From Minisyncoccota bacterium (GTDB taxonomy: Bacteria; Patescibacteriota; Minisyncoccia; Minisyncoccales; JAZKSW01): a DNA stretch of 24,229 nt. The stretch's first letter is position 1. Every line of letters starts with the position of its first letter. The notes under the pieces were generated by a model, which had not been told where the DNA came from, ran no database searches, and saw nothing but the letters and a program-made list of their open reading frames with translations. The stretch is from positions 1 through 24,229 of the forward strand of contig JAZKSW010000005.1 of assembly GCA_036625875.1 (NCBI GenBank). The letters run 5' to 3'. The translations under genes were made by a program, and so were the position numbers. Shown in pieces: positions 1-17,882 of the stretch.

Positions 1-450
1 ACACAGTGCTGCCCCCAGAGCATCAGCTGCATCATTCGGCTTGGGAATTTCTTCTAAATCAAGGTGTTCCTTTACCATTTTCTGCACTTGTTTCTTTTTA
101 GCCTTCCCGTAGCCCGTCATAGCCATCTTAATTTGAAGGGGGGTAAATTCATAAACTTCCAGGTTATTCTCTACAGCAGTCAACATAGCTACTCCCCTAG
201 CTTGTCCCACTGGAATAGCCGATTTAGCGTTTTTAAAGAAATAAACGCTCTCTATTGCAAGAGCCTTTGGTTTATATTTATCTATTAAGCTTTTAATGTC
301 CTCGTGTATTTCTTTGAGCCGCTGTTCCGGTTCCAAATCCGCAGAGGTACGAATGCTACCAAAATCCAAAGCCTTAACTTCCTCATTCTCATACTTTACT
401 AACCCGTATCCGGTAGTAGCGGTCCCGGGATCAATTCCAAGTATAATCAT
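1..450 (-). CDS. ruvC: Holliday junction resolvase RuvC; the window edge cuts off its 3' end, so the C-terminus is missing
   Basis: Not in the ORF track because the stop lies before position 1. Manual minus-strand translation from the ATG at 450 gives MIILGIDPGTATTGYGLVKYENEEVKALDFGSIRTSADLEPEQRLKEIHEDIKSLIDKYKPKALAIESVYFFKNAKSAIPVGQARGVAMLTAVENNLEVYEFTPLQIKMAMTGYGKAKKKQVQKMVKEHLDLEEIPKPNDAADALGAALC. This matches the classic RuvC N-terminus (GIDPG), mid-region (AIE..FF..N....VGQARGV) and C-terminal motif (PKP.DAADALA.A.C). Confidence 0.88.
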   Translation of the reverse strand, partial: MIILGIDPGTATTGYGLVKYENEEVKALDFGSIRTSADLEPEQRLKEIHEDIKSLIDKYKPKALAIESVYFFKNAKSAIPVGQARGVAMLTAVENNLEVYEFTPLQIKMAMTGYGKAKKKQVQKMVKEHLDLEEIPKPNDAADALGAALC

Positions 451-728
451 ATTAGCTCTATCTGTCCATATACTAATCCGCTTAGCGAATTTAATTTTAA
501 GGCAGATTTTAAATTACGAGGAATGTAATGTATTGACGACAGGAAATACATAATATTGACGAGTAATTTAACAATGTGGTCAAAATTAATTCGTGACAAA
601 GTCAAAGCTAATAATTGAGCAATCTCTTTGTCGCTCCTCTTTGCTGTAGTATTGCTACGCAACTACAGCTTCATCGTTGCTCCGCGAGGCTTGAATTAAT
701 TGTTAGCTTCTAAGAGGATTCTATATGG

Positions 729-1442
729 TCAGAGAGAGCTATTGGTATAAACCGATTGAATTTCGGAATTATCTCTTAATTTCTCCACTAATTCTTTAAC
801 TTTTTCTTTTTCTTCTTCATTGGCCTCCGCTTCTTTTTTAGGTACCCATTTAATACCACTGGATTTTACTTCATAATCACCTAACTTTTCTTTTATCTGT
901 TCCAGATCTTCCAGGGTAGTGTAAACCTTTAATTGTTCTTCTTCAGTGACAATATCATCAGCTCCAGCATCAATAGCTTCTAATTCTAATTTTTCTTGAT
1001 CTTGATTCTTAGTATCAATTATCACCACCCCTTTCTGCTCGAATAACCATCTTACCGAACTTGTTTCCGCCAATTCACCTTGATTTTGTTTTAAAACTTG
1101 CTTTATTTCTGATAAAGTTCTGTTACGATTATCAGTCTCCCCCTCTAAAAGTATAGCAACTCCGCCAGGACCATACGCGCCAAACATAACTTTTTCTATA
1201 CTTTCTCCTTCTAATTCACCAGTTCCTTTCTTAATGGCTCGTTCAATGTTTTCCTTGGGCATATCTTCGTTACGTGCTTTTTCAATAATGCTTTTCAAAT
1301 CGGAATTCTTTTCAGGGTCGCCACCTCCTTCTCGAGCAGCAGTGGTAATTTGCTGAGAAAGTTTGGAAAACTTTTTAGCGCGTTTTTTGTCCTTTTTTTC
1401 TTTTTTATGTTTTATATTTGAATAATGAGAGTGTCCGGACAT
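729..1442 (-). CDS. yebC: YebC/PmpR-family DNA-binding transcriptional regulator
   Basis: 237 aa. N-terminus MSGHSHYSNIKHKKEKKDKKRAKKFSKLSQQITTAAREGGGDPEKNSDLKSIIEKARNEDMPKENIERAIKKGTG matches the YebC signature (MAGHSKWANIKHRK...AAR.GG.DP..N..L...I.KA...NMPK..I.RAIKKG.G). Sits in the conserved neighbourhood next to ruvC. Confidence 0.9.
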   Translation of the reverse strand: MSGHSHYSNIKHKKEKKDKKRAKKFSKLSQQITTAAREGGGDPEKNSDLKSIIEKARNEDMPKENIERAIKKGTGELEGESIEKVMFGAYGPGGVAILLEGETDNRNRTLSEIKQVLKQNQGELAETSSVRWLFEQKGVVIIDTKNQDQEKLELEAIDAGADDIVTEEEQLKVYTTLEDLEQIKEKLGDYEVKSSGIKWVPKKEAEANEEEKEKVKELVEKLRDNSEIQSVYTNSSL

Positions 1443-1473
1443 AATTTCAATTTAATTATATCTTAATTTGTCG

Positions 1474-2145
1474 CTAATTTTCAACTTCTAATAATTGTTT
1501 AAGGTAAAAAATAATGAATACCGAAAAAATAGCCGTTATTGAAGCCATTACTAACGTAAACCAAAAATTGGTAGTTTGAGGTAAGGAAGTAGTCAAAGGT
1601 CTAGCGGGCATTTGTTCCTTTTCAGGCTCTGGTTCGCTATTAACTTTTCCGGGAGTTCCACCTTCCTTTCGGGAGGTATGCCATTTCTTACCTTTTTCCA
1701 TTGTTTTATACCCCTCAACTCTACCGGCCCTCCAACCTGCTTTGTCATTTACTTCTTGCAATACCACTTCTTTTCTTTTTAATTTCAAATACTGACCATT
1801 ATTATTTAAACCACCAGTATAAATTTGATCAGCTTCGGTATCGGAAAGAGTTTTATCGTCAGTTCTTTCCAAAATAAAAAAGGAATCTGGGGCAATTTCT
1901 CCTTGTAAGTCTATTTGTAGATTTTCGTCTTGAGTTACTAACCTCCAATCCTTAAGGTTAATGGTTTTATCAGCAGAATTATACAACTCAATCCACTCGT
2001 CAGCCCAACTACTTTCCGTACCCATCCAAGCTATTTCATTAATACGCAAACTTGACCCAGCTGCCTCCACCGAGCTGCCTATCATTAACAAAACTGTTAC
2101 TAACAATATTATTTTATAATTCTCAGGGAAAATATTATTGACCAC
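1474..2145 (-). CDS. Membrane-anchored lamin-tail-domain (LTD) protein
   Basis: 223 aa. N-terminal hydrophobic signal/anchor (IILLVTVLLMIGSSVEAAG). Central segment SSLRINEIAWMG...DEWIELYNSADKTINLKDWRL...FFIL...NNGQYLKLKRKE matches the LTD fold signature (InEi..n..g...eWiEl.N.....vdLsgw.l......f.l....L.n.Gd.l.L). C-terminal TM helix (FWFTLVMASITAIFSVFIIFYL). Confidence 0.62.
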   Translation of the reverse strand: MVNNIFPENYKIILLVTVLLMIGSSVEAAGSSLRINEIAWMGTESSWADEWIELYNSADKTINLKDWRLVTQDENLQIDLQGEIAPDSFFILERTDDKTLSDTEADQIYTGGLNNNGQYLKLKRKEVVLQEVNDKAGWRAGRVEGYKTMEKGKKWHTSRKEGGTPGKVNSEPEPEKEQMPARPLTTSLPQTTNFWFTLVMASITAIFSVFIIFYLKQLLEVEN

Positions 2146-2150
2146 GGCAC

Positions 2151-3242
2151 TTATAATAATTTCCGGTTATCAATATCAACCTCATCTAAATGTTCATAGG
2201 ATTTCTCGGTAGCTATTCTGCCTCGATTAGTCCTTTCTATAAAGCCTCTTTGAATAAGATAAGGCTCATAGATATTAAGAATAGTACGTTCTTGTTCTGA
2301 AGTAGCAGCAGCCAAGGTTTTTAACCCTACCGGTCCTCCGTCGAATTTATCTACAACTGCCTTTAAAATCCTTCTATCTCCGGGCTCTAAACCTTCTTCA
2401 TCTATCTCTAAAAATGTTAATGCCTTTTCGGCGATATCCGCTTCTATTTTTCCTTCCCCTTTAACTTGAGCAAAATCTCTAACTCTTTTCAATAAGCGAT
2501 TAGCAACTCTCGGAGTAAAACGTGATCTTTCTGCTATTTTTACTACTGCTTCTTCTTCAATTTCTACTTCTAAAATATCAGCTGATCTTCTAATTATATC
2601 TTCCATTTCTTCTTGGCTGTAAAATCCCAATCTGAAAGTTGCTCCAAATCTATTTCTTAAAGGTGCAGATATCAAAGCTAACCGAGTAGTAGCCCCCACT
2701 AATGTAAACTTAGGGAGATCTATTTCTTTAGTTTCTGCCATCGGACCTCTTCCTAACACCAAATGGAGTTTGAAATCCTCCATGGCGGGATACATTACTT
2801 CTTCCGCCATTTTATTAATTCGATGACATTCGTCTAAAAATAATACGTCTCCTTCTTCTAAGTTAGTTAAAATAGATGCTAAATCGCCCGGTCTTTCTAT
2901 GGAAGGACCTGCCGTAACTTTAATATTAGCACCCATCTCTTCGGCTATTAAATGGGAAAGAGTAGTTTTTCCAAGTCCTGAACCTCCATAAAGTAATAGA
3001 TGTTCCAAGTGAGGATCTCCTCTCTTTTTTGCAGCCTTAACTATCACTTTAATATTCTCCTTTACTTTTTCCTGACCAACGTATTCATCCCACTCAGTAG
3101 GGCGAAGGGTAGAATCCAACTCCTCGTCTTCTTCCGTAGGCGTAGGATCAACCGGATCCGACTTAACGGATTCATTTGAATTTAACTCAGAAGATCCAGA
3201 ATTCGGAGCATCTGCCCCGTTTGAATTGGACTTGACAACCAT
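2151..3242 (-). CDS. ruvB: Holliday junction branch-migration ATPase RuvB
   Basis: 363 aa. EYVGQEKVKENIKVIVKAAKKRGDPHLEHLLLYGGSGLGKTTLSHLIAEEMGANIKVTAGPSIERPGDLASILTNLEEGDVLFLDECHRI is a near-textbook RuvB Walker A / sensor region. Carries a ~45-aa low-complexity N-terminal extension compared with E. coli RuvB. Confidence 0.93.
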   Translation of the reverse strand: MVVKSNSNGADAPNSGSSELNSNESVKSDPVDPTPTEEDEELDSTLRPTEWDEYVGQEKVKENIKVIVKAAKKRGDPHLEHLLLYGGSGLGKTTLSHLIAEEMGANIKVTAGPSIERPGDLASILTNLEEGDVLFLDECHRINKMAEEVMYPAMEDFKLHLVLGRGPMAETKEIDLPKFTLVGATTRLALISAPLRNRFGATFRLGFYSQEEMEDIIRRSADILEVEIEEEAVVKIAERSRFTPRVANRLLKRVRDFAQVKGEGKIEADIAEKALTFLEIDEEGLEPGDRRILKAVVDKFDGGPVGLKTLAAATSEQERTILNIYEPYLIQRGFIERTNRGRIATEKSYEHLDEVDIDNRKLL

Positions 3243-3283
3243 TTTATTATTTATTATTATATAGGCGGTTAATAGAAAGTAAC

Positions 3284-3410
3284 AGCCCCTGGGCTGGGGG
3301 CAGGAGACTTTTTCGGCCGGGTAATCCGGTGTAAAAGATGCTCTCCATACGGAGTATCGTCTGGATTATTCCTCAAAAAGACTCTGGCATTCCCCCCAGC
3401 CCAGGGGCTG
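3284..3410. other. GC-rich structured element: an 18-bp perfect closing stem around ~91 nt containing sub-hairpins. Candidate structured ncRNA or miniature inverted-repeat element; class unknown
   Basis: 3284-3301 (CAGCCCCTGGGCTGGGGG) is the exact reverse complement of 3393-3410 (CCCCCAGCCCAGGGGCTG). A second inner helix pairs 3305-3314 GAGACTTTTT with 3375-3384 AAAAAGACTC (9/10). Internal hairpins are CCGG-GTAAT-CCGG (3318-3330) and CTCC-ATAC-GGAG (3344-3355). It forms a strongly GC-rich island inside an otherwise AT-rich dnaN-ruvB intergenic spacer. Confidence 0.35.
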
Positions 3411-3419
3411 CTTACATTT

Positions 3420-4538
3420 TTAAGTAGACTTAATAGGCATTATTACGTACAAATAACTCTCATCTCCATCCGGTCTCAAGGTAGCTGCACCCTCTCCCCC
3501 ATTCATCTCAAAGATTACTTGATCCGTATTAATATTAGAGAGTCCATCTCTCACAAAGCGCCAATTAAATGAAGCTTCGGAATCTTCTCCTTCTACTTCA
3601 GCTGAAACTACTGATTTATTCTTTCCTAAATTAGGATCCTCAGAAGATATTTCTAATCCTTTATCCGAAGTTTTACATTTAACTTCATTAACTTTTCCTC
3701 CGAATAGGCTAGCTGCTTTAATTTGATTCAAGAATTTTTCGCGAGGTAATTTCAATCGAGTTTGGTGATCATCAGGAATTATTTTTTCATAGTCAGGATA
3801 GTCGCCTTCAACTAATTTGGAAGTAATTTGAAATTCCGGCTGAGTCTTTTCCGGCGACTCTGTTTTGAACATTATTTGGTTCTCGGAAATAAAAACTTTT
3901 AATTCCCTTTGTTGGTCTTTAAAAATATTCATCAACTCTCTTGCTGTTTTGCTGGGCAAAATTAAACATCTTGTTGAATCCAAAGTAGTATCGGATAAAG
4001 AAACAGTTTTTTCTCCCAATCTGAAACTGTCAGTAGCTACCATTTTTATTTCTTTTTTATTAAAGCAAATATAAACACCGGAAATTTCTGGTCTTACTTT
4101 ACTGGGAGAAGCAATGTCTTCTACTTGAGAAAGTCCTTCCATTAAAACAGAACTTTTTATTTCGGCGAATTCATCTTCTAGTTCCGGAATAATGGGAAAT
4201 TCTTTAGGATCCAATCCTTTTAATTGGCTTTCGTAATTTCCACATTTAATCTTTAAATCTTGTTTCTTTTGTTTTAATTGTATTTCCTCTTCCGGTAAGG
4301 AATTAATTAAATTAGAAAAGGCTTTAGCTGGTATAGCTACCTTTCCTTGATCTTTTATTTTAGCAAGTACTTCATATTTTATTCCTAATTCCAGATCGGT
4401 AGCAGCTAATTCTAAATGATTCTTTTTGGTGGTTAAAAGTACACTATCCAGAACAGGTAAAGAGGAACTTTTAGAAGCCACCTTTTTTATTTTATCCAGA
4501 CCTTGTTTTAAATTTTGTTTTAAAATTTTTAATTTCAT
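3420..4538 (-). CDS. dnaN: DNA polymerase III beta sliding clamp
   Basis: 372 aa. N-terminus MKLKILKQNLKQGLDKIKKVASKSSSLPVLDSVLLTTKKNHLELAATDLELGIKYEV is typical of DnaN domain I. Located directly downstream of dnaA. Confidence 0.9.
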   Translation of the reverse strand: MKLKILKQNLKQGLDKIKKVASKSSSLPVLDSVLLTTKKNHLELAATDLELGIKYEVLAKIKDQGKVAIPAKAFSNLINSLPEEEIQLKQKKQDLKIKCGNYESQLKGLDPKEFPIIPELEDEFAEIKSSVLMEGLSQVEDIASPSKVRPEISGVYICFNKKEIKMVATDSFRLGEKTVSLSDTTLDSTRCLILPSKTARELMNIFKDQQRELKVFISENQIMFKTESPEKTQPEFQITSKLVEGDYPDYEKIIPDDHQTRLKLPREKFLNQIKAASLFGGKVNEVKCKTSDKGLEISSEDPNLGKNKSVVSAEVEGEDSEASFNWRFVRDGLSNINTDQVIFEMNGGEGAATLRPDGDESYLYVIMPIKST

Positions 4539-4685
4539 ATTAATATTAATTTATTTAAATAATTAAATGTTAATACTACTATTAGGGTAGTGGATTGTGT
4601 TAATAACTTTTTAAGACCTTGAAAAAATAACGAAAGAACTGGAAAGAGATTGTTAAAAAATATTGGAAAAAATGTGGCCGTAATG

Positions 4686-6026
4686 TTAGTTGTTTTGAAT
4701 CTTCTGATTGATAAGGTCAATCTCCTCAGATAATCCATCTTCTTTACCCAACTTTTCTTCAATTTTTTCACAGGCATAAATTACCGTTGTGTGATCCCTA
4801 CCTCCAAATCTGTCTCCAATAGAAGGATAAGAATTGTCCAATTTTTCCCTTAACAAATACATTGCTACTTGTCTTGGCTTCACTACTTCTCTCTTACGTG
4901 AAGAAGAGGATAATTTTTCTTCATCTATTCCATAAAAATCAGCTACGGTTTCAACGATTTGTTCCGGATTAATTGGTTTTTTAGAAGAATAGGTGAAGTT
5001 TTTAAGAAGGGATTTAGCAACTTCTAAGTCAGGCGTTTCATTGTTAAGTTTTTTATATGCTACTAATTTATTCAAAGCTCCTTCTAACTCTCTGATGTTG
5101 TCTTTCACATTGGAAGCAATATAATCCAAGATCTTATCCGGGATTGTAATTTCCCCCTCCTTCATTTTTAGTTCCAGAATAGCCATCCTGGTTTCATAAT
5201 CAGGTAAGCTAATATCCGTAATCATACCGCCCTCAAAACGAGACCTAAGACGGTCTTTTAATGAAGAAATTGCTTTGGGGGGACGGTCCGAGGATAAAAC
5301 TATTTGGTTATCCTTTTCGTAAAGGACGTTGAAAATATGAAAGAACTCCTCTTGTGTTTTTTCTTTTCCTGATAAAAATTGAATATCATCAATTATTAAG
5401 GTATCGACATCCTTGAAGTTAGATTTAAACTCTTGGATCTTTTGGTTTTTGATTGAAGATACTACACCGGACGTGAATTTTTCTGCAGAAATGTATTTTA
5501 TTTTCTTATCTTCAAAATCTTCTCCGACTCTGTTTCCTATTGCTTGTAATAAATGGGTTTTTCCCAAACCAACTCCTCCGTAAATGAAAAGGGGATTATA
5601 AACGGAACCTGGTTCTTTTGCTACTGCCCACGCGCCCGCATGCGATAATTCATTAAAAGAACCCACCACAAAATTTTCAAAAGTATAGCGAGGATTTAAG
5701 TTGGTTTCTTTATCTAAATCAAAATCATCAAACTTCAATTGTTCTTCTTTAACGCTAGGGTTAGAGGCTTGACTTGTTTCTGAAGAATCTACCTTGTAGT
5801 CTACATCTTTAATATCAGGATCAAGATTGTGTAGTATTTTTAATATCTTTTTATGATATTTGTTTTCTAGCCACTCCTTAGTAAAATTATTAGGTACAGA
5901 TACCGTTAATTGGTCATCTTCTCTAGAAGATATTTTCGTTTTCTTGAACCAAGTAGCAAAGTTAGCTGGAGAAGTATTAAACTGGATTTGGGCTAACACT
6001 GCTTCCCACAATTCCTCTTTATTCAT
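4686..6026 (-). CDS. dnaA: Chromosomal replication initiator DnaA
   Basis: 446 aa. N-terminus MNKEELWEAVLAQIQFNTSPANFATWFKK (DnaA domain I). AAA+ Walker A NPLFIYGGVGLGKTHLLQAIGN. Walker B LIIDDIQFLSGKEKTQEEFFHIFN. C-terminal DNA-binding helix-turn-helix VAMYLLRE...S...IGDRFGGRDHTTVIYACEKI. Confidence 0.95.
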   Translation of the reverse strand: MNKEELWEAVLAQIQFNTSPANFATWFKKTKISSREDDQLTVSVPNNFTKEWLENKYHKKILKILHNLDPDIKDVDYKVDSSETSQASNPSVKEEQLKFDDFDLDKETNLNPRYTFENFVVGSFNELSHAGAWAVAKEPGSVYNPLFIYGGVGLGKTHLLQAIGNRVGEDFEDKKIKYISAEKFTSGVVSSIKNQKIQEFKSNFKDVDTLIIDDIQFLSGKEKTQEEFFHIFNVLYEKDNQIVLSSDRPPKAISSLKDRLRSRFEGGMITDISLPDYETRMAILELKMKEGEITIPDKILDYIASNVKDNIRELEGALNKLVAYKKLNNETPDLEVAKSLLKNFTYSSKKPINPEQIVETVADFYGIDEEKLSSSSRKREVVKPRQVAMYLLREKLDNSYPSIGDRFGGRDHTTVIYACEKIEEKLGKEDGLSEEIDLINQKIQNN

Positions 6027-6328
6027 GGTTATAACTAAATAGGAGGTTAAAGTTTATAAAAGAATACAGAACTTTGTTTCTTTTGTTTCTACTTTAATTT
6101 TAACACATCCTGAAAAAGTTTCCACACCCCCAAACAACCTTTATTTATGTTTTTTGTGTATAACATGAGGAAAATTTGTTGATCAATTTTGGATTAATTG
6201 GTAGTTTTTAGAACATTGTAATCAGCAAAAATTTACGTTAAACTGAATAAGGTGCTTCTATTTTCTCGCTCGCTTCAGAAATATAAATAAACAATTATTT
6301 AATTTCCTTGCTCGCTCGTAATTATAAG
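6027..6328. promoter_or_regulatory. dnaA-rnpA divergent intergenic region; candidate oriC / dnaA promoter region with a few DnaA-box-like 9-mers and an AT-rich stretch
   Basis: TGTGTATAA at 6156-6164 is 8/9 to TGTGGATAA. GTTTCCACA near 6117-6125 is the reverse complement of TGTGGAAAC, 7/9. An AT-rich run spans 6130-6165. Box density is modest and I cannot compute GC skew, so this is only a candidate. Confidence 0.3.
6262..6328 (+). promoter_or_regulatory. rnpA promoter/leader module, copy A of a duplicated ~55-nt leader element
   Basis: TTCTCGCTCGCTTCAG-AAATATAAATAAACAATTATTTA-AATTTCCTTGCTCGCTCG-TAATTATAAG-ATG. The 23-nt core at 6278-6300 is identical to 15100-15122 on the opposite strand. 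It contains a -10-like TATAAAT at 6281-6287. Confidence 0.45.
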
Positions 6329-8181: not shown

Positions 8182-9657
8182 TTAATTTGATTGCCGAAGA
8201 GGAATAATTCCTATACTTCCTATTTCATCATCTTCGGGATAGGTTATGACATTGTGACCTGTTAAATTCGGGTCGCTATTTTTAATTACTTTGCATTGTT
8301 CTTCAAAGGTGAAGGGGTCTATAAAGCTAGTTCCGCCGAACTTATCTTTACCCAACACTACCATAAAACTGCCTTGTATTTCTATAGATAGTATTCTATC
8401 TACAGCCTTATCTTCATCGGGATCATCGGGATCATCATGCACCTTTACGCCTAAATCACCACTTTTAATTGGGTAGTCAATTTCTTCACTCCAGAAGCGT
8501 CTGTCATGCTTATCTTCTATTGTGCTGGCATCTATTGTGAAAAAATCCCCTTCGTGACCTATTTCTTCGTAAAAAGTGACTTTCCCTTTTTTTATTTTTG
8601 ATAACCTAAGTGCAAACGGTGTGATAGATTCTGCTTCTTTGGCACCGAAATCGGACTGACTTGTTAAATCAACTGTTCGGTTTGTGCAAAAGGACATAGT
8701 ACTTCTTCCTCCACCTATACCAGGCGGGCTTCCAGCTGTTGGATCCTGGGGCATAACTCCTTTTACTGTACACTTACCTTTGTAATCGGTTTTGCCATGA
8801 AGTACTGCTCCGTAAGCAATTTCAGGAACCAGAAGGCCATCTTTGTTTTTACATTTCCCGGCACTCTTAAAAACTATTCCCCCAACCTCATTCTTATAAC
8901 CTCCCAAATCATCTTCTTTGCTAAGATAGTGTTGGTAAGGCTCTCCTGGAAAGGCAGCCATAGTACATTTATCAAAAGGATCTGAAGAGTCGTAACCCGA
9001 TTTGGGAGGATTTTTATAAAGATACACCCCCGGTTTGTTATCTTCCAGATAAAATGATTTTAATCCGCTAACACTCTCTTTCTTACCATCTTCTTCCGGA
9101 TCAGTTTTATAGTTACCTTTATAACTACAGCTTCCCTCGTATTTCTTGGAATCAAACCAAAAAGCTCCTTCAATTGCGTCTCTGATGCTCTGAAATTGCA
9201 ACTCCTCTGCCTCAAACCCTTCGGGCAGAGCCTCTTGGCTGTCACTAAAACAACATCTTGTAGAAGAACCGTTTTCGTTCTCTCCGTACAAGCAAATTCC
9301 CTGACTGGGAGTTCCGGGATCCATAGTATTTCTTAACAGTTGTGGATTGATTGTTTGTAGAAGTAAATACGACCCCAGTAAGATAACAATTGCTATTACG
9401 GCTCCCGTTATGTAGCTTTTGGCATCATCAATTCTGCTTCGATTACCTCCTGAAATTAAATACATGAAACCTCCGAACACCAAAGCGCCGAAGACTAATA
9501 AACCTCCGAGCCATAAGGACCACGTGAAAATCTTAGCGATAAGAGAAGATAAGCCACTGCCTCTTCCCAGGATCACACAATTTGCCCCTGTAACTATTGA
9601 AGGGGTAATTAAGGTGATAGTTACCAAGAAGACAATTGTTTTTTTAGTTATTCTCAT
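8182..9657 (-). CDS. Secreted/membrane protein: an N-terminal VirB2/TrbC-like (Patescibacteria 'T4SS pilin'-type) domain fused to a ~380-aa extracellular domain with scattered Cys
   Basis: 491 aa. Signal peptide MRITKKTIVFLVTITLITPSIVTGANC. Two TM segments flank GGFMYLISGGNRSRIDDAKSYITGAVIAIVILLGSYLLLQTINPQL, the GG.Y..SGG.....AK....TINPQL pilin-type pattern, and the upstream ORF shares it. The stop lies 4 nt from the jag stop, with the two genes convergent. Confidence 0.6.
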   Translation of the reverse strand: MRITKKTIVFLVTITLITPSIVTGANCVILGRGSGLSSLIAKIFTWSLWLGGLLVFGALVFGGFMYLISGGNRSRIDDAKSYITGAVIAIVILLGSYLLLQTINPQLLRNTMDPGTPSQGICLYGENENGSSTRCCFSDSQEALPEGFEAEELQFQSIRDAIEGAFWFDSKKYEGSCSYKGNYKTDPEEDGKKESVSGLKSFYLEDNKPGVYLYKNPPKSGYDSSDPFDKCTMAAFPGEPYQHYLSKEDDLGGYKNEVGGIVFKSAGKCKNKDGLLVPEIAYGAVLHGKTDYKGKCTVKGVMPQDPTAGSPPGIGGGRSTMSFCTNRTVDLTSQSDFGAKEAESITPFALRLSKIKKGKVTFYEEIGHEGDFFTIDASTIEDKHDRRFWSEEIDYPIKSGDLGVKVHDDPDDPDEDKAVDRILSIEIQGSFMVVLGKDKFGGTSFIDPFTFEEQCKVIKNSDPNLTGHNVITYPEDDEIGSIGIIPLRQSN

Positions 9658-9662
9658 AGATA

Positions 9663-12257
9663 TTATTCACGAATTAATTCTACACAGAAGAAATTATTCA
9701 TGCCTCCGTTTCTCCCTAAATTCTTAATAGCGTTTTGGCATTTATCACTTTGTTTGTTTGTTAAGCAGGCTTCTTTTTGCTCGTTGGTTAAATCCTTGTG
9801 GCTATAAGGATAACAACTGTTTTGCACATTGGGTAAACTTGGCAAGGAAAACTCGGGAGGATAACAATTATTGTAGTTGGTGATGGGGAAATTAGGTTGA
9901 ATGTCCAGTTGCCCTAATTTTAACAAATCAAGGCCCAAACTACAACTGAGTATACCTTGAAGGTTCATATTTTTTTCAGCCACTCCCCCAAAACCTGTTA
10001 AGCATCCTTTCATTTTATCTCTGCTTTGAGATAGCATAGTTATTAATTCGTGACGGTCAGGATCATCTTTTTTGAGGTCTTTTACTTTTATCAAATCAAC
10101 AATACGATTGAAAGAATTTTTAATTGTTTCTTCAGCTTCTACTACTGTATTTGTCTGATCCTTAATTGCATCCATTAAACAAGGGTTTTCAATTTTGCAT
10201 TTACACTCACAAATATCCGGTCCTGGGTCACAACAGTAGCAATTTTCTCCATCGCTGTCACAACACATCTCACAACATGCACCTTGCCCAACTACATCAC
10301 AATAAGCTTCAGAGTGGTAAGCTCCCCAGTAATCATCCGGATTATTCTGACATCTACAACTTAATGGGAGTACGTAAAGCACAGAAAGATCTCCTTGAGG
10401 CTCATCCTCTAAGTCTCCTGCCGGATCTTCTGGATTGAATAAAGCATTAGTAGCCTTTTCTATTCTATTATTAATATCTTTTAATTTGTTTAAATTTATT
10501 TGGGCGAGTTTTTCTGCATCGTCCGTAGCATCTCCAATGGGGATTAAGCCTCGCGGGTATCTGCTGTCCGGTTCGGGATCTAAAGTGGCTTTTCCCAGCA
10601 AGGGGGCGATAGAACTAGGCACTTTTTCCGAATTAGGATCCGGACAGTAAAAGGTAGCCGGGTCACCGTCTTTTTTCTCACAGGTCTGTTCCGGTTTATC
10701 ACCTTCTTTTTCGTCCTCTATTTTGCATAAAGTACAAGTGGCATCGGTAGTAGTACAAGATGAACTACCGGTTTCATTATTTAATAAATACTCTGAAGGT
10801 TTGCAGGTTTTTATTTCTCTTTTCCCTACGGTTGACGTAGCACAATCTCCCTTTTCAAGTGTATCTAAATCACAATCATAGCAAGGTAGTTTACCTTCAT
10901 CGGTAGTAGTGCAATTTTTAGCATTAAATTCTTTACAGTATTTAGTAGTTTCCACTTTGTTTTCTTCAGAACAGCTGTTTCCCCAAGAAGTTCCGCTTTC
11001 ACAGAAATCTTTTTTCTGCCATTCAGCGGGTCTTTCTTTTTTAGAGAAATAATAATTTGCCTGAGAAATTACAGTTTGGTAAGGACAATCATTTTTAAGA
11101 AAATTTTCTGCTCTTCTAAGATAAGTTAAGTCTTTTTCTAAGTCCTTTTCCAGAGGCTTTAAAAAGTTAACCATTAAAAAACGAACTTGGTCCGCTACCA
11201 ACAGTGGTTCTCCTTCACCGGAGTGATCGTCCGGGTTAATTACAGCTCTTTCGTTAAACTGTTTGGTAGTTAAGTCCTTAAGTTTATCATCGGTGTAATT
11301 CCGCCTAATTTTCTTTCTGTATTCGTCAATTTTATCTCTAAAACCATCACAAGGGTCTCCGTCTTCATAAGGGTCTCCTATGCAACTTTCCAGAGGTTCA
11401 CAGGTGCCCTGCTTGCATGATTTACTATCACAGGTTCCGTCTATGCACTCTCCTTCCACGTTGCAGTATTCAGTAGAACAATCACTTGTTAAATTTTTGA
11501 TTTTTTCAGCCCACTCTCTTAATTTTTCCATTTTCTTGTTCACGGGTTCTTCGAATTTGGTCAGGCAGTCCATTCGGTCATGTTCGGTCATGGGGTCAAT
11601 TTGTTCCGTGTCGGGATTAGCGTCTTTAAAAACAAGTAGTTCATCTTCTTCTATAAAATCATAACAATACCCTTGACGGGCGTCTTTTTGATTGACTAAA
11701 GTATCTACCTCCTTACCATCTTGACAGTCCACCATCGTCTCGTACTTCTCTCCTTTCCGGTAGCAATCTATTTCTTTCGCTAATATTTTTTCGGTTAGAG
11801 TTCCAATGGGAATTTCTTGAAAAGTAGTTGTGGCTTTTACAGTAGAAGGAGGATCGGGTTTAATTGGTGGAGTGGTAGTGGGGCTATCCACGTCAAAAGG
11901 AGTTTCTACTAGTTGGGGGTTAATAGTGGTTAATATTAAGACAGAAGTCAGTAGTAACAGAAGGCCTAAGAAAGCATGACGGGCCGTGTTTTTTGCATTT
12001 TGAATTCTCGTAGCGTTACCTCCCGAAGTTAAATACAAAATTCCTCCATAGATTAAGACTCCGGTTACTATTATAACACCTACGAACAATCCCAAACTAA
12101 AAAGGTAAGTTAAGAGTCCCGTAATACCGGCTCCCGGTTCAGGCTCCTTTACACCCGGAAGGTTGGGATAGTCTACAGCTTGCGCTAAATTAAAAAACCC
12201 TAACCCCAAAGAGATTAAGGTAAGAAGTAATAAAGTTTTATATTGTTTTTTATTCAT
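9663..12257 (-). CDS. Giant cysteine-rich surface protein: an N-terminal VirB2/TrbC-like pilin domain fused to a ~750-aa disulfide-rich ectodomain. Paralog of the downstream gene
   Basis: 864 aa. Signal peptide MNKKQYKTLLLLTLISLGLGFFNLAQA. Pilin-type segment LFVGVIIVTGVLIYGGILYLTSGGNATRIQNAKNTARHAFLGLLLLLTSVLILTTINPQL. The rest is extremely Cys-rich (CxxC/CC/CxC clusters, e.g. CCEMCCDSDGENCYCCDPGPDICECKCK) with D/E/K/T-rich linkers. Confidence 0.6.
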   Translation of the reverse strand: MNKKQYKTLLLLTLISLGLGFFNLAQAVDYPNLPGVKEPEPGAGITGLLTYLFSLGLFVGVIIVTGVLIYGGILYLTSGGNATRIQNAKNTARHAFLGLLLLLTSVLILTTINPQLVETPFDVDSPTTTPPIKPDPPSTVKATTTFQEIPIGTLTEKILAKEIDCYRKGEKYETMVDCQDGKEVDTLVNQKDARQGYCYDFIEEDELLVFKDANPDTEQIDPMTEHDRMDCLTKFEEPVNKKMEKLREWAEKIKNLTSDCSTEYCNVEGECIDGTCDSKSCKQGTCEPLESCIGDPYEDGDPCDGFRDKIDEYRKKIRRNYTDDKLKDLTTKQFNERAVINPDDHSGEGEPLLVADQVRFLMVNFLKPLEKDLEKDLTYLRRAENFLKNDCPYQTVISQANYYFSKKERPAEWQKKDFCESGTSWGNSCSEENKVETTKYCKEFNAKNCTTTDEGKLPCYDCDLDTLEKGDCATSTVGKREIKTCKPSEYLLNNETGSSSCTTTDATCTLCKIEDEKEGDKPEQTCEKKDGDPATFYCPDPNSEKVPSSIAPLLGKATLDPEPDSRYPRGLIPIGDATDDAEKLAQINLNKLKDINNRIEKATNALFNPEDPAGDLEDEPQGDLSVLYVLPLSCRCQNNPDDYWGAYHSEAYCDVVGQGACCEMCCDSDGENCYCCDPGPDICECKCKIENPCLMDAIKDQTNTVVEAEETIKNSFNRIVDLIKVKDLKKDDPDRHELITMLSQSRDKMKGCLTGFGGVAEKNMNLQGILSCSLGLDLLKLGQLDIQPNFPITNYNNCYPPEFSLPSLPNVQNSCYPYSHKDLTNEQKEACLTNKQSDKCQNAIKNLGRNGGMNNFFCVELIRE

Positions 12258-12258
12258 A

Positions 12259-12564
12259 TTAATCCTGAAGTATCTCCATTATTACGAGAATGGTCCAAAA
12301 TGGTGCAATGTCACCAAGGGCGGGAATTAATTCCCCTCCGGTAAAGCCCATCAGTTTCTTAGCACTGGTTCCACCGAACCCCATACCATCTCCCCTGACA
12401 AAGTAAAGCCAGGATCCTAGAAAGACACCTCCTAACAAATCGGGAATGAAAGAAATGCCGAAGCCTATTCCTACAAAGTCTAGTACTAAACAAGCCAGAC
12501 CTATTAAGTCCAATATCGCAGCCAAAAAGAACATCATAGTGGAACCCGGGCTAGGAAAGCTCAT
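12259..12564 (-). CDS. Small glycine-rich integral membrane protein (hypothetical; possibly a divergent pilin/VirB2-like subunit)
   Basis: 101 aa with two hydrophobic helices (FFLAAILDLIGLACLVLDFVGIGFGISFI ; IAPFWTILVIMEIL) and a G-rich loop GFGGTSAKKLMGFTGG. Tightly packed between virB4 (3-nt gap) and the 864-aa gene (1-nt gap). Confidence 0.45.
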   Translation of the reverse strand: MSFPSPGSTMMFFLAAILDLIGLACLVLDFVGIGFGISFIPDLLGGVFLGSWLYFVRGDGMGFGGTSAKKLMGFTGGELIPALGDIAPFWTILVIMEILQD

Positions 12565-12567
12565 ATT

Positions 12568-14409
12568 TTAAAATTCTCCTTGTTCTAACCTACTTTGATT
12601 TTTAGAAGATTGTTGTCCTAACTCTTTTTTGGACTCTTTAATCTTCTTAACTTCTTCCGGAGAGGTGGTAATTATTTGCTCCTCGGCATAAGAAGCTACT
12701 ACTCTTAAGCCAACGTGCTTAGGCCCTGCAAAAAACAACCCTTCTCCTACCGGAGCTTCTAATAGCATTGTTTTTTCTGCTTCAGTTAAATTAAAGGCAT
12801 CTTGAACTGCTTCGGCTCCTGAAGGTGATTGTTTCATTAATAATTGGAGAGAAGAGTTGGTAATAATAGGTTTTCCATAGTCCGACTTCATGAAATCAAT
12901 CACATCTTGAGTAATAGTGGTAACTCCAAGCCAATATTTTCTGCCTCTTTTAGCTGTGCCGAATAGGAAGGAGGCTCCATCTTCGTTCTTCATCATCCAC
13001 CATGCTTCGTCTACCACTAAAATTCTTTTCTTGAGTTCAGCTCTAATAGTGTTCCAAATGTAGCGCATAATCATGAACATGGCCATCGGCCTTAATTCAT
13101 CTTCCATGTCTCTAATACCGAAGGTAACGAGATTATTATCCATTTCTACGTTGGTCGGATTATTGAAGAATTCAGAATAACTACCTTCGGTGAATTTTCT
13201 TAATCTCCTGACAAGTGATTCTGCTCCTTCCATCGTTTCCAAAACAGATTGAAAGTCTTCCATTAGAGGGGTTCTTTCGTCCCATAAAGAGGGGTCGGTT
13301 TCGGGAGTAATATCCCGAGCGCGATAAGTTTCGGTTAGAGCTTGATCTATAATTGCATCTTCCTCGGCATTAAGTCCGCCAAGCATTATTCTTAAAAGCC
13401 CTACTAAATTAATAATATTGCTTCTCAACACGTCTGACGGCCTTTCGTTTTCTCTCGGTGGAGGGAGGTCAAAAGGGTTAACATGGTTAGGGGAAGTCAA
13501 AGACATATTGTAATAAGAACCTCCTACTGCGTCCGACAGGAATTTATATTCGTTTTCGGGATCGATTATGATAACATCCGTTCCCATCATTAAGGATCTT
13601 AAAATTTCTAGCTTCTCGAAGAATGACTTTCCGGATCCGGCCTTACCGAAAACAACCGAGTTCGCGTTTTCTAAAGAAAAGCGGTCGAACAATACCAAAG
13701 AATTATTATGTTTGTTAACTCCGTAAAGAATTCCCTCATTGGAGCTTAGATCAAAGGAAATAAACGGAAAGGCACTGGATAACGGGGCAGTATTCATGGG
13801 GTTGGTTACTCCCAATTTATCAGTTCCGTAGGGAACGGAAGACAAAAAGCCCTTTTTCTGTTGAAATAAAGCTGGCTTAGGATAAATCATCCGGGATTCC
13901 AAAATAGATCTTAGCCGGGTTTCCGAACTGTTCAAATCTTCTTTGCTTTCTCCGTAAACGGTGATATAGAGTGAGAATTGAAACATCTTTTCCCTGGCGG
14001 TCTGTAATTTATCTCTCAATTCTTCCAGGTCTTGGTAGGCAGTTTCCAGTTCAGGACTTCTTACTAATCCTTTCTCTTCTCTTTCGGCAATTTCTGATTG
14101 AACCTCTGCTGTTCTTTTTCTCAACTTTTTAAGAATTTGTTCTGAATCTTCAGGATGAATAAACATTGAAACATCCATCGGGGTGTCCATGTTGATTACG
14201 GGAGACAACCAGCCCGTACTCAGATAACGGGGATAGGAAAATACGAAGAAAGATTTAACATATCTTTCTCCTAATTTAATATTATCCTCGCTGACTTTAA
14301 TCGAAGCCGGAGCGGCTATATCTTTAGCTCCAATGGGCCGAGTCTGGAAAACCTGCTCCGGTATTTTTTCTCCTCTATTGAGTAATTTGTCCAAAAAAGG
14401 AATCTTCAT
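12568..14409 (-). CDS. virB4: VirB4/TrbE-family T4SS ATPase, C-terminal ~3/4 (middle domain plus ATPase domain)
   Basis: 613 aa. Walker A VVFGKAGSGKSFFEK. Walker B RILVVDEAWWMM. The N-terminal part YVKSFFVFSYPRYLSTGWLSPVINMDTPMDVSMFIHP aligns to the VirB4 mid-region (YVGSIYSF.EYP....PGML..L.SLDFPLVLTQSFSFL in A. tumefaciens VirB4). The ATG overlaps the upstream ORF's TGA (ATGA). Confidence 0.85.
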   Translation of the reverse strand: MKIPFLDKLLNRGEKIPEQVFQTRPIGAKDIAAPASIKVSEDNIKLGERYVKSFFVFSYPRYLSTGWLSPVINMDTPMDVSMFIHPEDSEQILKKLRKRTAEVQSEIAEREEKGLVRSPELETAYQDLEELRDKLQTAREKMFQFSLYITVYGESKEDLNSSETRLRSILESRMIYPKPALFQQKKGFLSSVPYGTDKLGVTNPMNTAPLSSAFPFISFDLSSNEGILYGVNKHNNSLVLFDRFSLENANSVVFGKAGSGKSFFEKLEILRSLMMGTDVIIIDPENEYKFLSDAVGGSYYNMSLTSPNHVNPFDLPPPRENERPSDVLRSNIINLVGLLRIMLGGLNAEEDAIIDQALTETYRARDITPETDPSLWDERTPLMEDFQSVLETMEGAESLVRRLRKFTEGSYSEFFNNPTNVEMDNNLVTFGIRDMEDELRPMAMFMIMRYIWNTIRAELKKRILVVDEAWWMMKNEDGASFLFGTAKRGRKYWLGVTTITQDVIDFMKSDYGKPIITNSSLQLLMKQSPSGAEAVQDAFNLTEAEKTMLLEAPVGEGLFFAGPKHVGLRVVASYAEEQIITTSPEEVKKIKESKKELGQQSSKNQSRLEQGEF

Positions 14410-15077
14410 TGGTTAAAATTTGATTGAGTTACTCTTTGTTGTTGATTTTGTTGAGTTATCTCGGGAGGGATTTCCGGGTAATAACCTACCTCTGCTCTAC
14501 GTGGATGATGGATGCTCCAGAATAACTCTATTATTTCCGGAGTGGTGAGGGGTACGGCTTTTAAACTACACCTTCTCAACCCCAACGCTACGAATTCCAT
14601 TCTTTGCCACAGTTGCCTTTTTGCTCTTTGGAATTTTTGCTCCGTCATTTTATGTCTTTTTGGCATTTTTCCTCCCGACTTTCGTTGTGCTTCTCTCAAA
14701 GTGTAGGGTACAACTACAAAGAAATTCTTTGACATAATGGTGTTTTTTTGTACCGTTTTATCTATAAACTTACGGTAACTTTCGGTCTGTGTTTGTAGTA
14801 ATTCATTATCTTGTTCCTTTTGTAGTTGTTCTAATTTATCTAAATAACCGGTAATGTTAAGCTGTCTGGATTTAAGATAAATTTGCAGAGGAAAATCCAG
14901 AGAGTTCAGCATTTCTTGAAATTGATAGATAATCGATTTTTTCTGGTCCGAAGTCTTTAGAGCAAAATTTAAAGAATTAACCATTAAAATACCCCTTAAT
15001 GCTTTGTTTTTCAATATGACTACTCCTTCTCTGACTTGATCAAATTTTAGAAAGTCTTGAGTTGCAGCTTCAGGCAT
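14406..15077 (-). CDS. virB4: VirB4/TrbE N-terminal segment encoded as a separate, translationally coupled ORF (split virB4)
   Basis: 223 aa. VREGVVILKNKALRGILMVNSLNFALKTSDQKKSIIYQFQEMLNSLDFPLQIYLKSRQ follows the VirB4 N-terminal pattern (I.LL.DGS..I.RI.G..FEL........F..LL......V.IY.HL.R). It ends in a TGA that overlaps the ATG of the 613-aa ORF. Combined length is ~836 aa, typical for full-length VirB4. Confidence 0.6.
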   Translation of the reverse strand: MPEAATQDFLKFDQVREGVVILKNKALRGILMVNSLNFALKTSDQKKSIIYQFQEMLNSLDFPLQIYLKSRQLNITGYLDKLEQLQKEQDNELLQTQTESYRKFIDKTVQKNTIMSKNFFVVVPYTLREAQRKSGGKMPKRHKMTEQKFQRAKRQLWQRMEFVALGLRRCSLKAVPLTTPEIIELFWSIHHPRRAEVGYYPEIPPEITQQNQQQRVTQSNFNQ

Positions 15078-15145
15078 ATTTGTGAACGAGTGAGAAAATT
15101 AAATAATTGTTTATTTATATTTTTGAAACGAGGAAGCAAGCGAAC
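15078..15145 (-). promoter_or_regulatory. virB4 promoter/leader module, copy B of the duplicated ~55-nt leader element (inverted relative to copy A)
   Basis: The minus strand reads GGTTCGCTTGCTTCCTCGTTTCA-AAAATATAAATAAACAATTATTTA-ATTTTCTCACTCGTTCACAAAT-ATG. The core 15100-15122 is the exact reverse complement of 6278-6300. It sits in a 139-nt gap inside the otherwise overlapping operon, between prgI-like and virB4-N. Confidence 0.45.
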
Positions 15146-15216
15146 CAGCGGTCGCGTAGTGACTGCTACACGACAATTTTCAAGAATTCGAGCGGAGCGA
15201 GAAGTTCTTATAATTA

Positions 15217-15633
15217 TTACTTTTTACCTGTTTTAACCTTTGTTTCCATTTCTTTTAATCGACTTTTTTGAGTCATTCTTAAAGGAGATTGTTTAGTATC
15301 GGTTTGCTGTGGTTGCTTCTTTTCTCTTTTTTCAATAATTTTAGGAGTGCTTTGCTTCTTTTTCCATAAGTAAACTTTGGAAGAAAACAAGAACGAAACG
15401 GAATGGAGAATTATCTCTGGCAAAGATTTACCGCCGACAGTGATAAAAGCTAAAGCCATTGCCACTGCAAAAAGAAGAAGAGCGGAGAGCACAAAAGGGA
15501 TTAGAGAGACAGTAAAGTAAAGGACGGCGGAAATTAAACCGGCTACTCCGATATAGGTAAATTGCTTAAAGGTCATCGGGCCTATAATTTTAGGTTCTTT
15601 TTCTATAAATTTTGGGACGCGGTAACGAGCCAT
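15217..15633 (-). CDS. PrgI/TcpE-family (VirB3-like) T4SS membrane protein
   Basis: 138 aa. MARYRVPKFIEKEPKIIGPMTFKQFTYIGVAGLISAVLYFTVSLIPFVLSALLLFAVAMALAFITV matches the PrgI-family N-terminus (..VPKD...EDKIIG.LT.RQ..Y...G, followed by two TM helices). Sits upstream of virB4, as prgI precedes prgJ. Confidence 0.65.
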   Translation of the reverse strand: MARYRVPKFIEKEPKIIGPMTFKQFTYIGVAGLISAVLYFTVSLIPFVLSALLLFAVAMALAFITVGGKSLPEIILHSVSFLFSSKVYLWKKKQSTPKIIEKREKKQPQQTDTKQSPLRMTQKSRLKEMETKVKTGKK

Positions 15634-16052
15634 TACTCAATTGATTCTCTATATTTATCTTTAGATGCTTTATCTTGTTGATTGGTTTGTTCCGGCTCTT
15701 TTGCTCCTTGTGGTTTTTGAGTTGGTTTTATTTCCGTTCCGTACAAAGCTGATAAGGTATCTCGTATTGGCATGAGAATAAACCGGTTAATTTCACGATA
15801 GATACTTCTAACTTGCTTTGCACTGAGTTCCAAGTCTTCTTTCAAGGTTTGTTTAAATTCTTTAGGGGTAAGTAATCCCATCAACACCTGACCGGTATAT
15901 CTAGCTACCTCGGAGTTTTTATCTACTCCCGCTCTTTCACACGCCTGTTTAATACGTTCAGCGGTGTCAGGTGAAAAAATAGCCTCCTGAAGTTCTTCAG
16001 GTAGTTTTTCATATACATCCCATAATTCATCTTTGGAATATTTCTTAGCCAT
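15633..16052 (-). CDS. Hypothetical soluble protein, first gene of the T4SS-like operon
   Basis: 139 aa, hydrophilic, no TM (MAKKYSKDELWDVYEKLPEELQEAIFSPDTAERIKQACERAGVDK...). Its stop overlaps the prgI-like start (TAATG). I recognise no family. Confidence 0.45.
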   Translation of the reverse strand: MAKKYSKDELWDVYEKLPEELQEAIFSPDTAERIKQACERAGVDKNSEVARYTGQVLMGLLTPKEFKQTLKEDLELSAKQVRSIYREINRFILMPIRDTLSALYGTEIKPTQKPQGAKEPEQTNQQDKASKDKYRESIE

Positions 16053-16122
16053 GTTTAACTGCCTTTATTTTAACAAAAAACGTTGGGTTATAAAAGTGGA
16101 GAAGCAGGAGAAAAGGTTAAGG

Positions 16123-16151
16123 TTGACAAATTATGTATTAATTAATATAAT
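16123..16151 (+). promoter_or_regulatory. Consensus sigma70-type promoter (TTGACA-17 nt-TATAAT) driving the SPFH-domain gene
   Basis: TTGACA at 16123-16128, a 17-nt spacer, then TATAAT at 16146-16151. A second TTGACA at 16198-16203 is followed by the RBS AAGGAG at 16213-16218. Confidence 0.55.
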
Positions 16152-16226
16152 ATGGATAACAATAGAAAGTTATTCTCTATTGGATATATTCTTTGGTCTT
16201 TGACATTTATATAAGGAGTGATAAAA

Positions 16227-17801: not shown

Positions 17802-17819
17802 AAAATTAGATAATCAGAT

Positions 17820-17853
17820 AGAGGGCGGAGTTCTAATCCGCCCTCTTTTTTAT
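17820..17853 (+). terminator. Rho-independent terminator for the SPFH gene
   Basis: AGAGGGCGGA-GTTCTAA-TCCGCCCTCT is a 10-bp GC-rich stem, followed by TTTTTTAT. Confidence 0.7.
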
Positions 17854-17882
17854 ATTTCTTAGCTTTTCTTGTTCTGGCTAAT

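Follow-up and report, generated by a model that had tools for sequence, protein, structure and literature searches.

A predicted structured small RNA gene at the ruvB locus of Paceibacteria, apparently representing an undescribed family

This study concerns a GC-rich inverted repeat located between dnaN and ruvB in a 24,229-nt contig of a Minisyncoccota bacterium (JAZKSW010000005.1, assembly GCA_036625875.1)—a stretch of DNA that spans the entire contig and is referred to hereafter as the window. Judged from sequence comparisons, positions 3232–3421 very likely constitute a stand-alone gene for a structured small non-coding RNA, encoded on the plus strand and antisense to dnaN and ruvB, with a predicted transcript of about 155 nt (130–160 nt). 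The small RNA apparently belongs to an undescribed family, kept at the ruvB locus in at least 14 related members of the Candidate Phyla Radiation (CPR)/Paceibacteria. The minus strand of the window carries dnaA (4686–6026), dnaN (3420–4538), ruvB (2151–3242), a gene for a lamin-tail-domain protein (LTD; 1474–2145) and yebC (729–1442), and the small RNA gene is oriented toward dnaN and away from ruvB.

The 177-nt spacer between dnaN and ruvB holds an inverted repeat whose 18-nt arms, located by string search and repeat finding, are 100% complementary: CAGCCCCTGGGCTGGGGG at 3283–3300 and its exact reverse complement at 3393–3410, separated by an interior of 92 nt. An initial annotation of the window had proposed a perfect 18-bp closing stem at this site; the stem is real and its right arm was placed exactly, but the left arm, given as 3284–3301, has to be moved by one nucleotide. 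Past a single bulged cytosine (C3411), the closing stem, termed P1, is prolonged by four further pairs between GTAA (3279–3282) and TTAC (3412–3415). Both arms are individually near-palindromic, as the annotation had noticed. When the window was shuffled with its dinucleotide composition preserved, the 18-mer recurred in 0/100 shuffles with 3 mismatches allowed, and a chance origin of the 18-bp inverted repeat is excluded. In addition, the sequence folds far more stably than shuffled controls on both strands (z-scores of −6.9 and −6.2 for the plus and minus strand, respectively, with 0/200 shuffles as stable). The description of the element as GC-rich also holds, with a GC content of 0.55 against 0.38 for the contig; this is the composition of a structured RNA within an AT-rich genome and reflects no foreign origin.

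Relatives of the element were sought by two routes. A P1-core pattern—12 nt of each arm, 77–107 nt apart—was scanned in 185,579 species-representative genomes plus metagenomes and matched 3 loci in the former and 7 in the latter. Among CPR or AT-rich species representatives the pattern was found once, in Candidatus Nealsonbacteria (locus L003), and the true relatives found by DNA pattern alone were L003 (identical in L004, L008 and L009) and L006, both in AT-rich CPR DNA. The remaining homologs were gathered via RuvB homologs and their neighborhoods, and the element was present in 11/11 distinct loci obtained in this way (L011–L015, L017–L019, L021, L023 and L043), at RuvB identities ranging from 90% down to 62%. 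The distinct copies total 14, i.e., that of the window and 13 others, all of them in Paceibacteria/Parcubacteria contigs. Two alignments were made, an independent MAFFT alignment of 10 copies (A3) and an alignment of 13 copies to the model (A4), and a covariance model (R1) was built from A3. This model recovers four more distant copies with scores of 52–83 bits and E-values of 1e-11 to 1e-21, which are rough owing to a shortened calibration. With filters off, R1 detected one copy in the 24-kb contig; across about 220 kb of related DNA, the copy number is exactly one per locus.

Evidence for a conserved RNA structure comes from covariation. RNAalifold applied to the 10-copy MAFFT alignment returned 47 pairs arranged in three stacked helices (21 in P1, 14 in P2 and 12 in P3), with compensatory double changes in 21 of these pairs. 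In this alignment 94.5% of the cells are paired, compared with 43–63% when the partners are slid by 1–3 columns, and none of 500 shuffles matched any of the five measures used. With 13 copies, double changes were seen in 27/47 pairs and 93.3% of the cells are paired (slid controls, 42–62%; again 0/500 shuffles), and P2 and P3 alone show double changes in 15/25 pairs. P1 provides examples of the exchanges: a T-A pair of the window is G-U in L011 and L012 and A-U in L013, while elsewhere G-C has become A-U (L015 and L018) or C-G (L017) and C-G has become U-A (L043). Moreover, the GGGGG and CCCCC tracts have been lost jointly from both arms in L019.

The alignment also indicates which strand is functional. 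Several G-U pairs are near-invariant, occurring in 12/13, 12/13, 10/13 and 8/13 copies, and G-U pairs occupy 89/608 cells; read on the opposite (gene) strand, only 80.8% of the cells pair versus 93.3% on the plus strand. On the gene strand, C-A mismatches would stand in place of these near-invariant G-U pairs, and the plus strand is therefore the functional single strand. The plus strand also folds better in 13/13 copies (e.g., −74.4 vs −69.1, −67.6 vs −50.6 and −47.7 vs −35.5 kcal/mol), and the covariance model scores it at 106 bits, as opposed to 45 bits for the minus strand. This assignment bears directly on the idea, raised in the initial annotation, of a cis-regulatory RNA for ruvB, that is, a sense-strand leader acting as a riboswitch, attenuator or protein-binding 5' untranslated region (UTR). 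Such a leader would fit the location of the element 40 nt upstream of the ruvB ATG and the stable minus-strand fold (−69.5 kcal/mol, with the z-score given above). However, the conserved structure lies on the other strand, which speaks against a ruvB leader; additionally, a consensus promoter and U-run signals were identified on the plus strand only, and in L006 the downstream gene is not ruvB. We therefore regard a ruvB leader as very improbable.

The plus strand carries signals expected of an independent transcription unit. A promoter scan placed a −35 box (TTGACA) at 3232–3237, inside ruvB codons 2–4 on the opposite strand and kept in 14/14 homologs, and a −10 box (TATTAT) at 3255–3260; with its 17-nt spacer this promoter has 11/12 consensus matches and ranks second in the first 20 kb. 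The combination of TTGACA, exactly 17 nt and TAnnnT recurs in 14/14 distinct copies, whatever the opposite strand encodes, and 8/13 of the copies tabulated have an extended −10 element (TGn). The −35 box coincides with ruvB codons 2–4 in the window and with LTD codons 4–6 in L006, and in L019 and L023 it lies entirely between genes, which argues that it is conserved for its own sake and is no by-product of RuvB codons. As transcription usually begins ~7 nt past a −10 box, the start is predicted at about position 3267, yielding a short A/U-rich 5' leader (3267–3278) of unconserved sequence; across the homologs, P1 begins roughly 0–20 nt past the predicted start. On the minus strand, a TATAAT (3261–3256) overlaps the −10 box of the small RNA and might be a divergent −10 box of ruvB; as read by eye, it is without a recognizable −35 box and is unconserved in the family.

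At the other end, P1 is followed by a T-run (3417–3421) that is likely the tail of an intrinsic terminator and overlaps the dnaN stop codon (3420–3422, minus strand). In 13/14 copies P1 is followed by a U-rich tail, with 6 or more U among the next 10 nt. In 11/14 copies (the exceptions being L019, L021 and L043), the 3' arm can by itself form a GC hairpin of 4–5 bp followed by the U-tail, which accounts for the self-palindromic arms; this small hairpin would offer a kinetic path to termination before the long-range P1 forms. The near-consensus sigma-70 promoter would drive synthesis of the RNA, and transcription would end at the U-run beyond the 3' arm. Among the interpretations offered by the initial annotation, the small structured RNA is the one that gained support, given a conserved structure, many compensatory changes, and promoter and terminator signals of its own.

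Two further observations were made on promoters and on RuvB. The only promoter with 12/12 matches in the first 20 kb (TTGACA-17-TATAAT, 16123–16151, plus strand) lies ~70 nt upstream of a gene for a 527-aa protein starting at 16218. Many of these genomes encode a RuvB that starts with M-(V/T/S)-V-K (3228–3242, minus strand, in the window; L003 and L011–L018), and the region after these first residues is highly variable in length and of low complexity in the window. Since the ruvB codons GTC AAG correspond to the reverse complement of the −35 box, the N-terminus of RuvB, and with it the first ruvB codons of this clade, appears to be constrained by the promoter on the opposite strand.

The RNA would fold as a rod in which P1, a GC-rich helix of 21–22 bp, joins the two ends, P2 and P3 form a wobble-rich inner part, and a linker returns to P1. 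The 5' arm of P1 (GTAA plus CAGCCCCTGGGCTGGGGG, 3279–3300) consists of columns paired in 96–98% of the cells, with double changes in 11/21 P1 pairs. The 5' side of the P1/P2 junction that follows measures 1–2 nt in most copies and about 10 nt, unpaired, in L023. The 5' strand of P2, GGAGACTTTTTCGG (3303–3316), opens with a near-invariant G-U pair (A4 columns 34–142, 12/13 copies), and double changes affect 8/13 of its pairs. The inner helix GAGACTTTTT/AAAAAGACTC of the initial annotation corresponds to P2; the helix exists, although it contains one A-A mismatch. P3 begins with GGGTAATCCGG (3319–3329), where tandem G-U pairs (12/13 and 8/13) stand beside an invariant G-C pair (13/13). This strand had been described as a hairpin of its own, CCGG-GTAAT-CCGG, and can indeed form one in isolation, but in the comparative structure it is the 5' strand of P3 and pairs with CTGGATTATTCC at 3361–3372.

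The tip of the rod is one of the two variable parts of the element. An apical extension hairpin, GATGCTCT-CCATAC-GGAGTATC (3337–3358), whose apex is the CTCC-ATAC-GGAG hairpin correctly recognized at the outset, occurs only in the window, L011, L012 and L014; it is dispensable, because it is absent in L013 and in every more distant copy. The apical loops likewise differ among copies (UUCG, UCCG, UUUG or longer). According to the comparative alignment, CTGGATTATTCCT (3361–3373) provides the 3' strand of P3 and the beginning of that of P2, and the best-conserved motif of the family, TCCTC(A/G)(A/G), lies mostly within these positions and extends to C3374. Both the fold and the comparative structure assign AAAAAGACTCT (3375–3385) to the 3' strand of P2, and the alignment places a 7-nt linker, GGCATTC (3386–3392), between P2 and P1. 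In the distant copies (L018, L003, L006, L019, L021, L023 and L043), a hairpin of 20–30 nt, termed P4, replaces this linker; the ancestral shape would therefore be a three-way junction and that of the window clade a simple rod. The 3' arm of P1 (CCCCCAGCCCAGGGGCTG, the bulged C and TTAC; 3393–3415), which can form the small GC hairpin alone, completes the structure. A conserved open reading frame was not found: as read by eye, the sole ATG-started frames of the window copy (30–33 codons, one per strand) begin in the apical hairpin that most copies lack.

The gene neighborhood follows two main arrangements. The order dnaN–element–ruvB–LTD is seen in the window and in L011–L017, whereas L003, L018–L025 and L043 have a T2SS-E/PilB-type ATPase gene, the element and ruvB, then usually LTD, yebC and ruvC; in L006 the order is ATPase gene–element–LTD gene. 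The orientation of the element relative to the flanking genes is the same in 14/14 loci. The upstream neighbor therefore varies (dnaN or the T2SS-E ATPase gene) while the linkage to the start of the ruvB operon persists, and the family is inherited vertically in Paceibacteria/Parcubacteria. When positions 1–6100 of the window are compared with L003, L018, L019, L021, L023 and L043, dnaA–dnaN is seen to have replaced the T2SS-E ATPase gene as the upstream neighbor of the small RNA in the window clade, with the rearrangement breakpoint between the stop codon of the upstream gene and the RNA terminator. In L043, dnaN and dnaA are found on the other strand at a distance of about 7 kb. L023 shows two peculiarities: a gene resembling NUMOD3/HNH homing endonucleases (17393–18160) between yebC and ruvC, and an extra inverted repeat, CCCACTACC ... 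GGTAGTGGG, at about 9925–10000, between the small RNA promoter and the ruvB start.

Several considerations weigh against a stand-alone small RNA gene and its proposed role. Its constant position next to ruvB is partly a matter of ascertainment, as the homologs were mostly collected via RuvB; on the other hand, L003 and L006, which were found by pattern, lie in the same context. The A4 alignment, made by aligning copies to the model, leans toward the model structure, yet the independent MAFFT alignment A3 yields the same covariation result. U-runs are weak in some copies (L015 and L018). Finally, promoter use, RNA ends, abundance and the role of the RNA are predictions.

Among the rival explanations, one treats the element as an insulator only—terminating dnaN or T2SS-E transcripts and blocking read-through into ruvB, with the plus-strand RNA as a functionless by-product. 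The terminator scan did find small terminator-like hairpins with T-rich tails at the P1 arms on both strands, the element always lies between two transcription units, and a GC-rich stem of ~20 bp is a strong barrier. A terminator, however, has no need for an interior of ~90 nt with the covariation documented for P2 and P3 (double changes in 15 of the 25 pairs), the near-invariant G-U and the conserved helix sequence, nor for a consensus promoter whose spacing is exact in every one of the 14 copies; furthermore, the gene-strand tail past the stem is not U-rich in several copies, e.g., L019. We consider this explanation unlikely. Rather unlikely, too, is a cis-antisense regulator, in which the plus-strand RNA would pair with a ruvB co-transcript or long 5' UTR and lead to RNase III cleavage or to transcription collision. 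The element stays linked to the ruvB operon at its 5' end while the other neighbor changes, the promoter overlaps the ruvB start and, as read by eye, the ruvB ATG is preceded by no visible Shine-Dalgarno sequence, all of which would suit such a regulator. Perfect antisense pairing, though, requires neither a conserved intramolecular fold nor G-U pairs, their physical overlap alone would hold the promoter and the ruvB start together, and the neighbor in L006 is the LTD gene instead of ruvB.

A transposable origin, which the initial annotation had entertained as a miniature inverted-repeat or foreign insertion, fares worse. The 18-bp perfect terminal repeats, the length of ~127 bp (the size of ERIC and Correia elements), the REP-like palindromic arms and a GC content above that of the genome would all befit a miniature inverted-repeat transposable element (MITE) or a REPIN/ERIC-like dispersed palindrome inserted between dnaN and ruvB. 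Against this, copies beyond the one per locus were not found in the contig or the related loci, and the P1 core occurs a single time among CPR or AT-rich species representatives. Each of the 14 distinct relatives has the element at the orthologous, syntenic site, empty sites were not encountered, and differences between copies are compensatory. Target-site duplications are also lacking, the GTAA/TTAC flanks being inverted and not direct, and neither the plasmid nor the phage collections gave a blastn match. Taken together, an insertion of this kind is scarcely credible. The remaining rival is a divergent housekeeping RNA, namely 6S RNA (a decoy of RNA polymerase) or the small signal recognition particle (SRP) RNA. 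The rod shape, the size of ~130–160 nt, a strong promoter of its own, the single copy, the long closing stem and the ~10 unpaired nucleotides on the 5' side of the L023 junction recall such RNAs; but the Rfam searches described below returned no match to them, a large two-sided central bubble is missing (1–2 nt on the 5' side in most copies), a GNRA tetraloop and the domain IV loops of SRP RNA are absent as well, and the apical loops differ between copies. An identity with either RNA is quite improbable.

Returning to a stand-alone small RNA, the pattern of conservation offers hints as to its role. The RNA is probably abundant and stable or long-lived, as a GC helix of 21 bp would hold both of its ends. 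The positions that are conserved belong to helices—the basal G-U of P2, the tandem G-U of P3 beside the invariant G-C, bulged A and C residues and the motif UCCUC(R)(R)—whereas loops, leader and linker vary freely, and a conserved single-stranded seed stretch is absent. Conserved helices combined with variable loops are the pattern expected of a protein-binding RNA and less that of a seed-pairing small RNA, and we tentatively propose, with well under even confidence, that the RNA binds protein. More speculative is the idea, which we hold to be doubtful, of a lineage-specific, abundant housekeeping RNA of Paceibacteria acting in a new RNA-protein particle, with the wobble-rich P2/P3 as the protein recognition site. 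Such an RNA could, for example, stand in functionally for a regulator like 6S RNA that has gone unrecognized in these reduced genomes, or could serve to control the surrounding DNA-uptake/recombination block (pilB-like ATPase, ComEA-like LTD, RuvB and RuvC). At the locus itself, the two transcription units probably compete, because the small RNA promoter overlaps the ruvB start and the minus-strand TATAAT overlaps its −10 box. Furthermore, the GC-rich stem together with convergent transcription would halt read-through from dnaN or the ATPase gene, and the small RNA gene would in this manner separate ruvB transcription from the upstream gene.

To relate the element to described RNAs, it was compared with known families. 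Rfam 15 (4227 families) gave no match in the whole window at gathering thresholds, and even at E ≤10 for the element and E ≤1 for 7 homologous loci no 6S, SRP, 5S, Y RNA or other bacterial family was matched. The only lookalikes were a below-threshold match to the stem of mir-326, together with ZFAT-AS1 (E 6.4) and Teg23 (E 0.62) elsewhere. The stem of mir-326 (RF00719) contains GGGCUGGAGG/CCUCCAGCCC and resembles the P1 core; since mir-326 is a eukaryotic microRNA precursor, and the hit reached 23.6 bits against a gathering threshold of 66, equally on both strands and with ~88 nt skipped, we set it aside as a chance resemblance. ARAGORN found no tRNA or tmRNA in the window. In viral contigs, a three-block pattern produced 17 matches, none of them recognized by the covariance model and, except for L026 (GC 0.45), with GC contents of 0.54–0.70, unlike the AT-rich CPR loci. 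P3 together with UCCUC also resembles helix 45 of 16S rRNA with the anti-Shine-Dalgarno tail, but this lead was dropped, as the shared bases covary instead of staying fixed.

Some matches to the arm pattern also proved unrelated. The interiors of L001/L007, L002, L005 and L010 do not align with that of the element, and their scores of 25–48 bits are about equal on both strands; we take them to share a 12-nt GC-rich stem by chance. These are very stable hairpins of 115–140 nt (e.g., −93 and −119 kcal/mol) in GC-rich, unrelated organisms that have the 12-nt core CTGGGCTGGGGG in common; they are found at 4015–4144 in L001 (the same as L007), 6262–6402 in L002, 1298–1449 in L005 and 2812–2955 in L010. 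The L010 hairpin, a perfect palindrome, lies at the end of a contig and is possibly an artefact of assembly.

To our knowledge, very few non-coding RNAs are known from CPR beyond rRNA, tRNA, RNase P RNA, tmRNA and SRP RNA. In the literature on non-coding RNAs of CPR/Patescibacteria, 6S RNA in CPR and structured RNAs of Parcubacteria, no description of the element was found. The genomes of these uncultivated organisms are tiny and have shed almost all that they can do without. An RNA that has been kept in them as a single copy, with a consensus promoter and 27 covarying pairs, at RuvB identities as low as 62%, is therefore likely to be important. The small RNA is a concrete target for metatranscriptome mapping and partner-protein pull-down as well as a candidate for a new Rfam family, and its features should warn annotators against labeling such a GC-rich palindrome as a repeat or a terminator.

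Other features of the window deserve mention. A 64-nt sequence occurs twice in inverted orientation with 81% identity (6262–6325 and 15076–15139), sharing a core made up of AAATATAAATAAACAATTATTTAATTT and then a CT-rich stretch; both copies end shortly before a start codon, one belonging to the RNase P protein gene (6308, plus strand) and the other to a gene for a 223-aa protein (14406–15077, minus strand). The two copies possibly represent a promoter or 5' UTR module common to both genes. Furthermore, positions 8182–20108 hold a large block of genes for membrane proteins, secreted proteins and ATPases, including a VirB4/TraC-like ATPase (12568–14409). Equivalent genes in related loci have Pfam matches to T4SS_pilin, PrgI and TraC-like families, and the block looks like a type IV secretion/pilus-like cluster.

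Among known systems, the closest counterparts are the stand-alone structured small RNAs of bacteria that have been found comparatively as GC-rich intergenic regions of AT-rich genomes (PMC11109978, PMC8723152); the 50-genome survey makes no mention of ruvB or CPR lineages. With such RNAs the element has in common a GC-rich island in an AT-rich spacer, a covarying structure, and promoter and terminator signals of its own. It differs from typical small RNA candidates in its extensive structure and fixed gene neighborhood, and it matches no Rfam 15 family.

The resemblance to 6S RNA (ssrS) lies in the rod shape, the similar size, the long stem joining the 5' and 3' ends, the strong sigma-70 promoter and the single copy. 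P4, which occupies the 3' side of the junction, is reminiscent of the 3' central-domain hairpin found in some 6S RNAs, but P4 has been lost in the window clade, and the element has neither the large central bubble nor an Rfam match to 6S RNA. Small SRP (4.5S) RNA is likewise a long hairpin of ~110–150 nt with a GC-rich closing stem and a stand-alone gene; here the element departs in lacking the conserved domain IV loops, the GNRA apex and an Rfam match. The dispersed ERIC, Correia, RPE and REPIN repeats share with it an intergenic location, perfect terminal inverted repeats and a nearly full-length imperfect palindrome of ~127 bp, whereas the element is single, immobile and orthologous in all relatives, strand-asymmetric in its G-U pairs and equipped with its own promoter. 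Similarly, overlapping −10 boxes (TATTAT on the plus and TATAAT on the minus strand, 3255–3261) and T-tailed hairpins on both strands are reminiscent of bidirectional promoters and terminators, yet the "loop" of P1 is a 92-nt structured RNA, as opposed to the 3–8 nt of bidirectional intrinsic terminators. The element is best regarded as forming a new family among the structured small RNAs of bacteria that have no assigned role.

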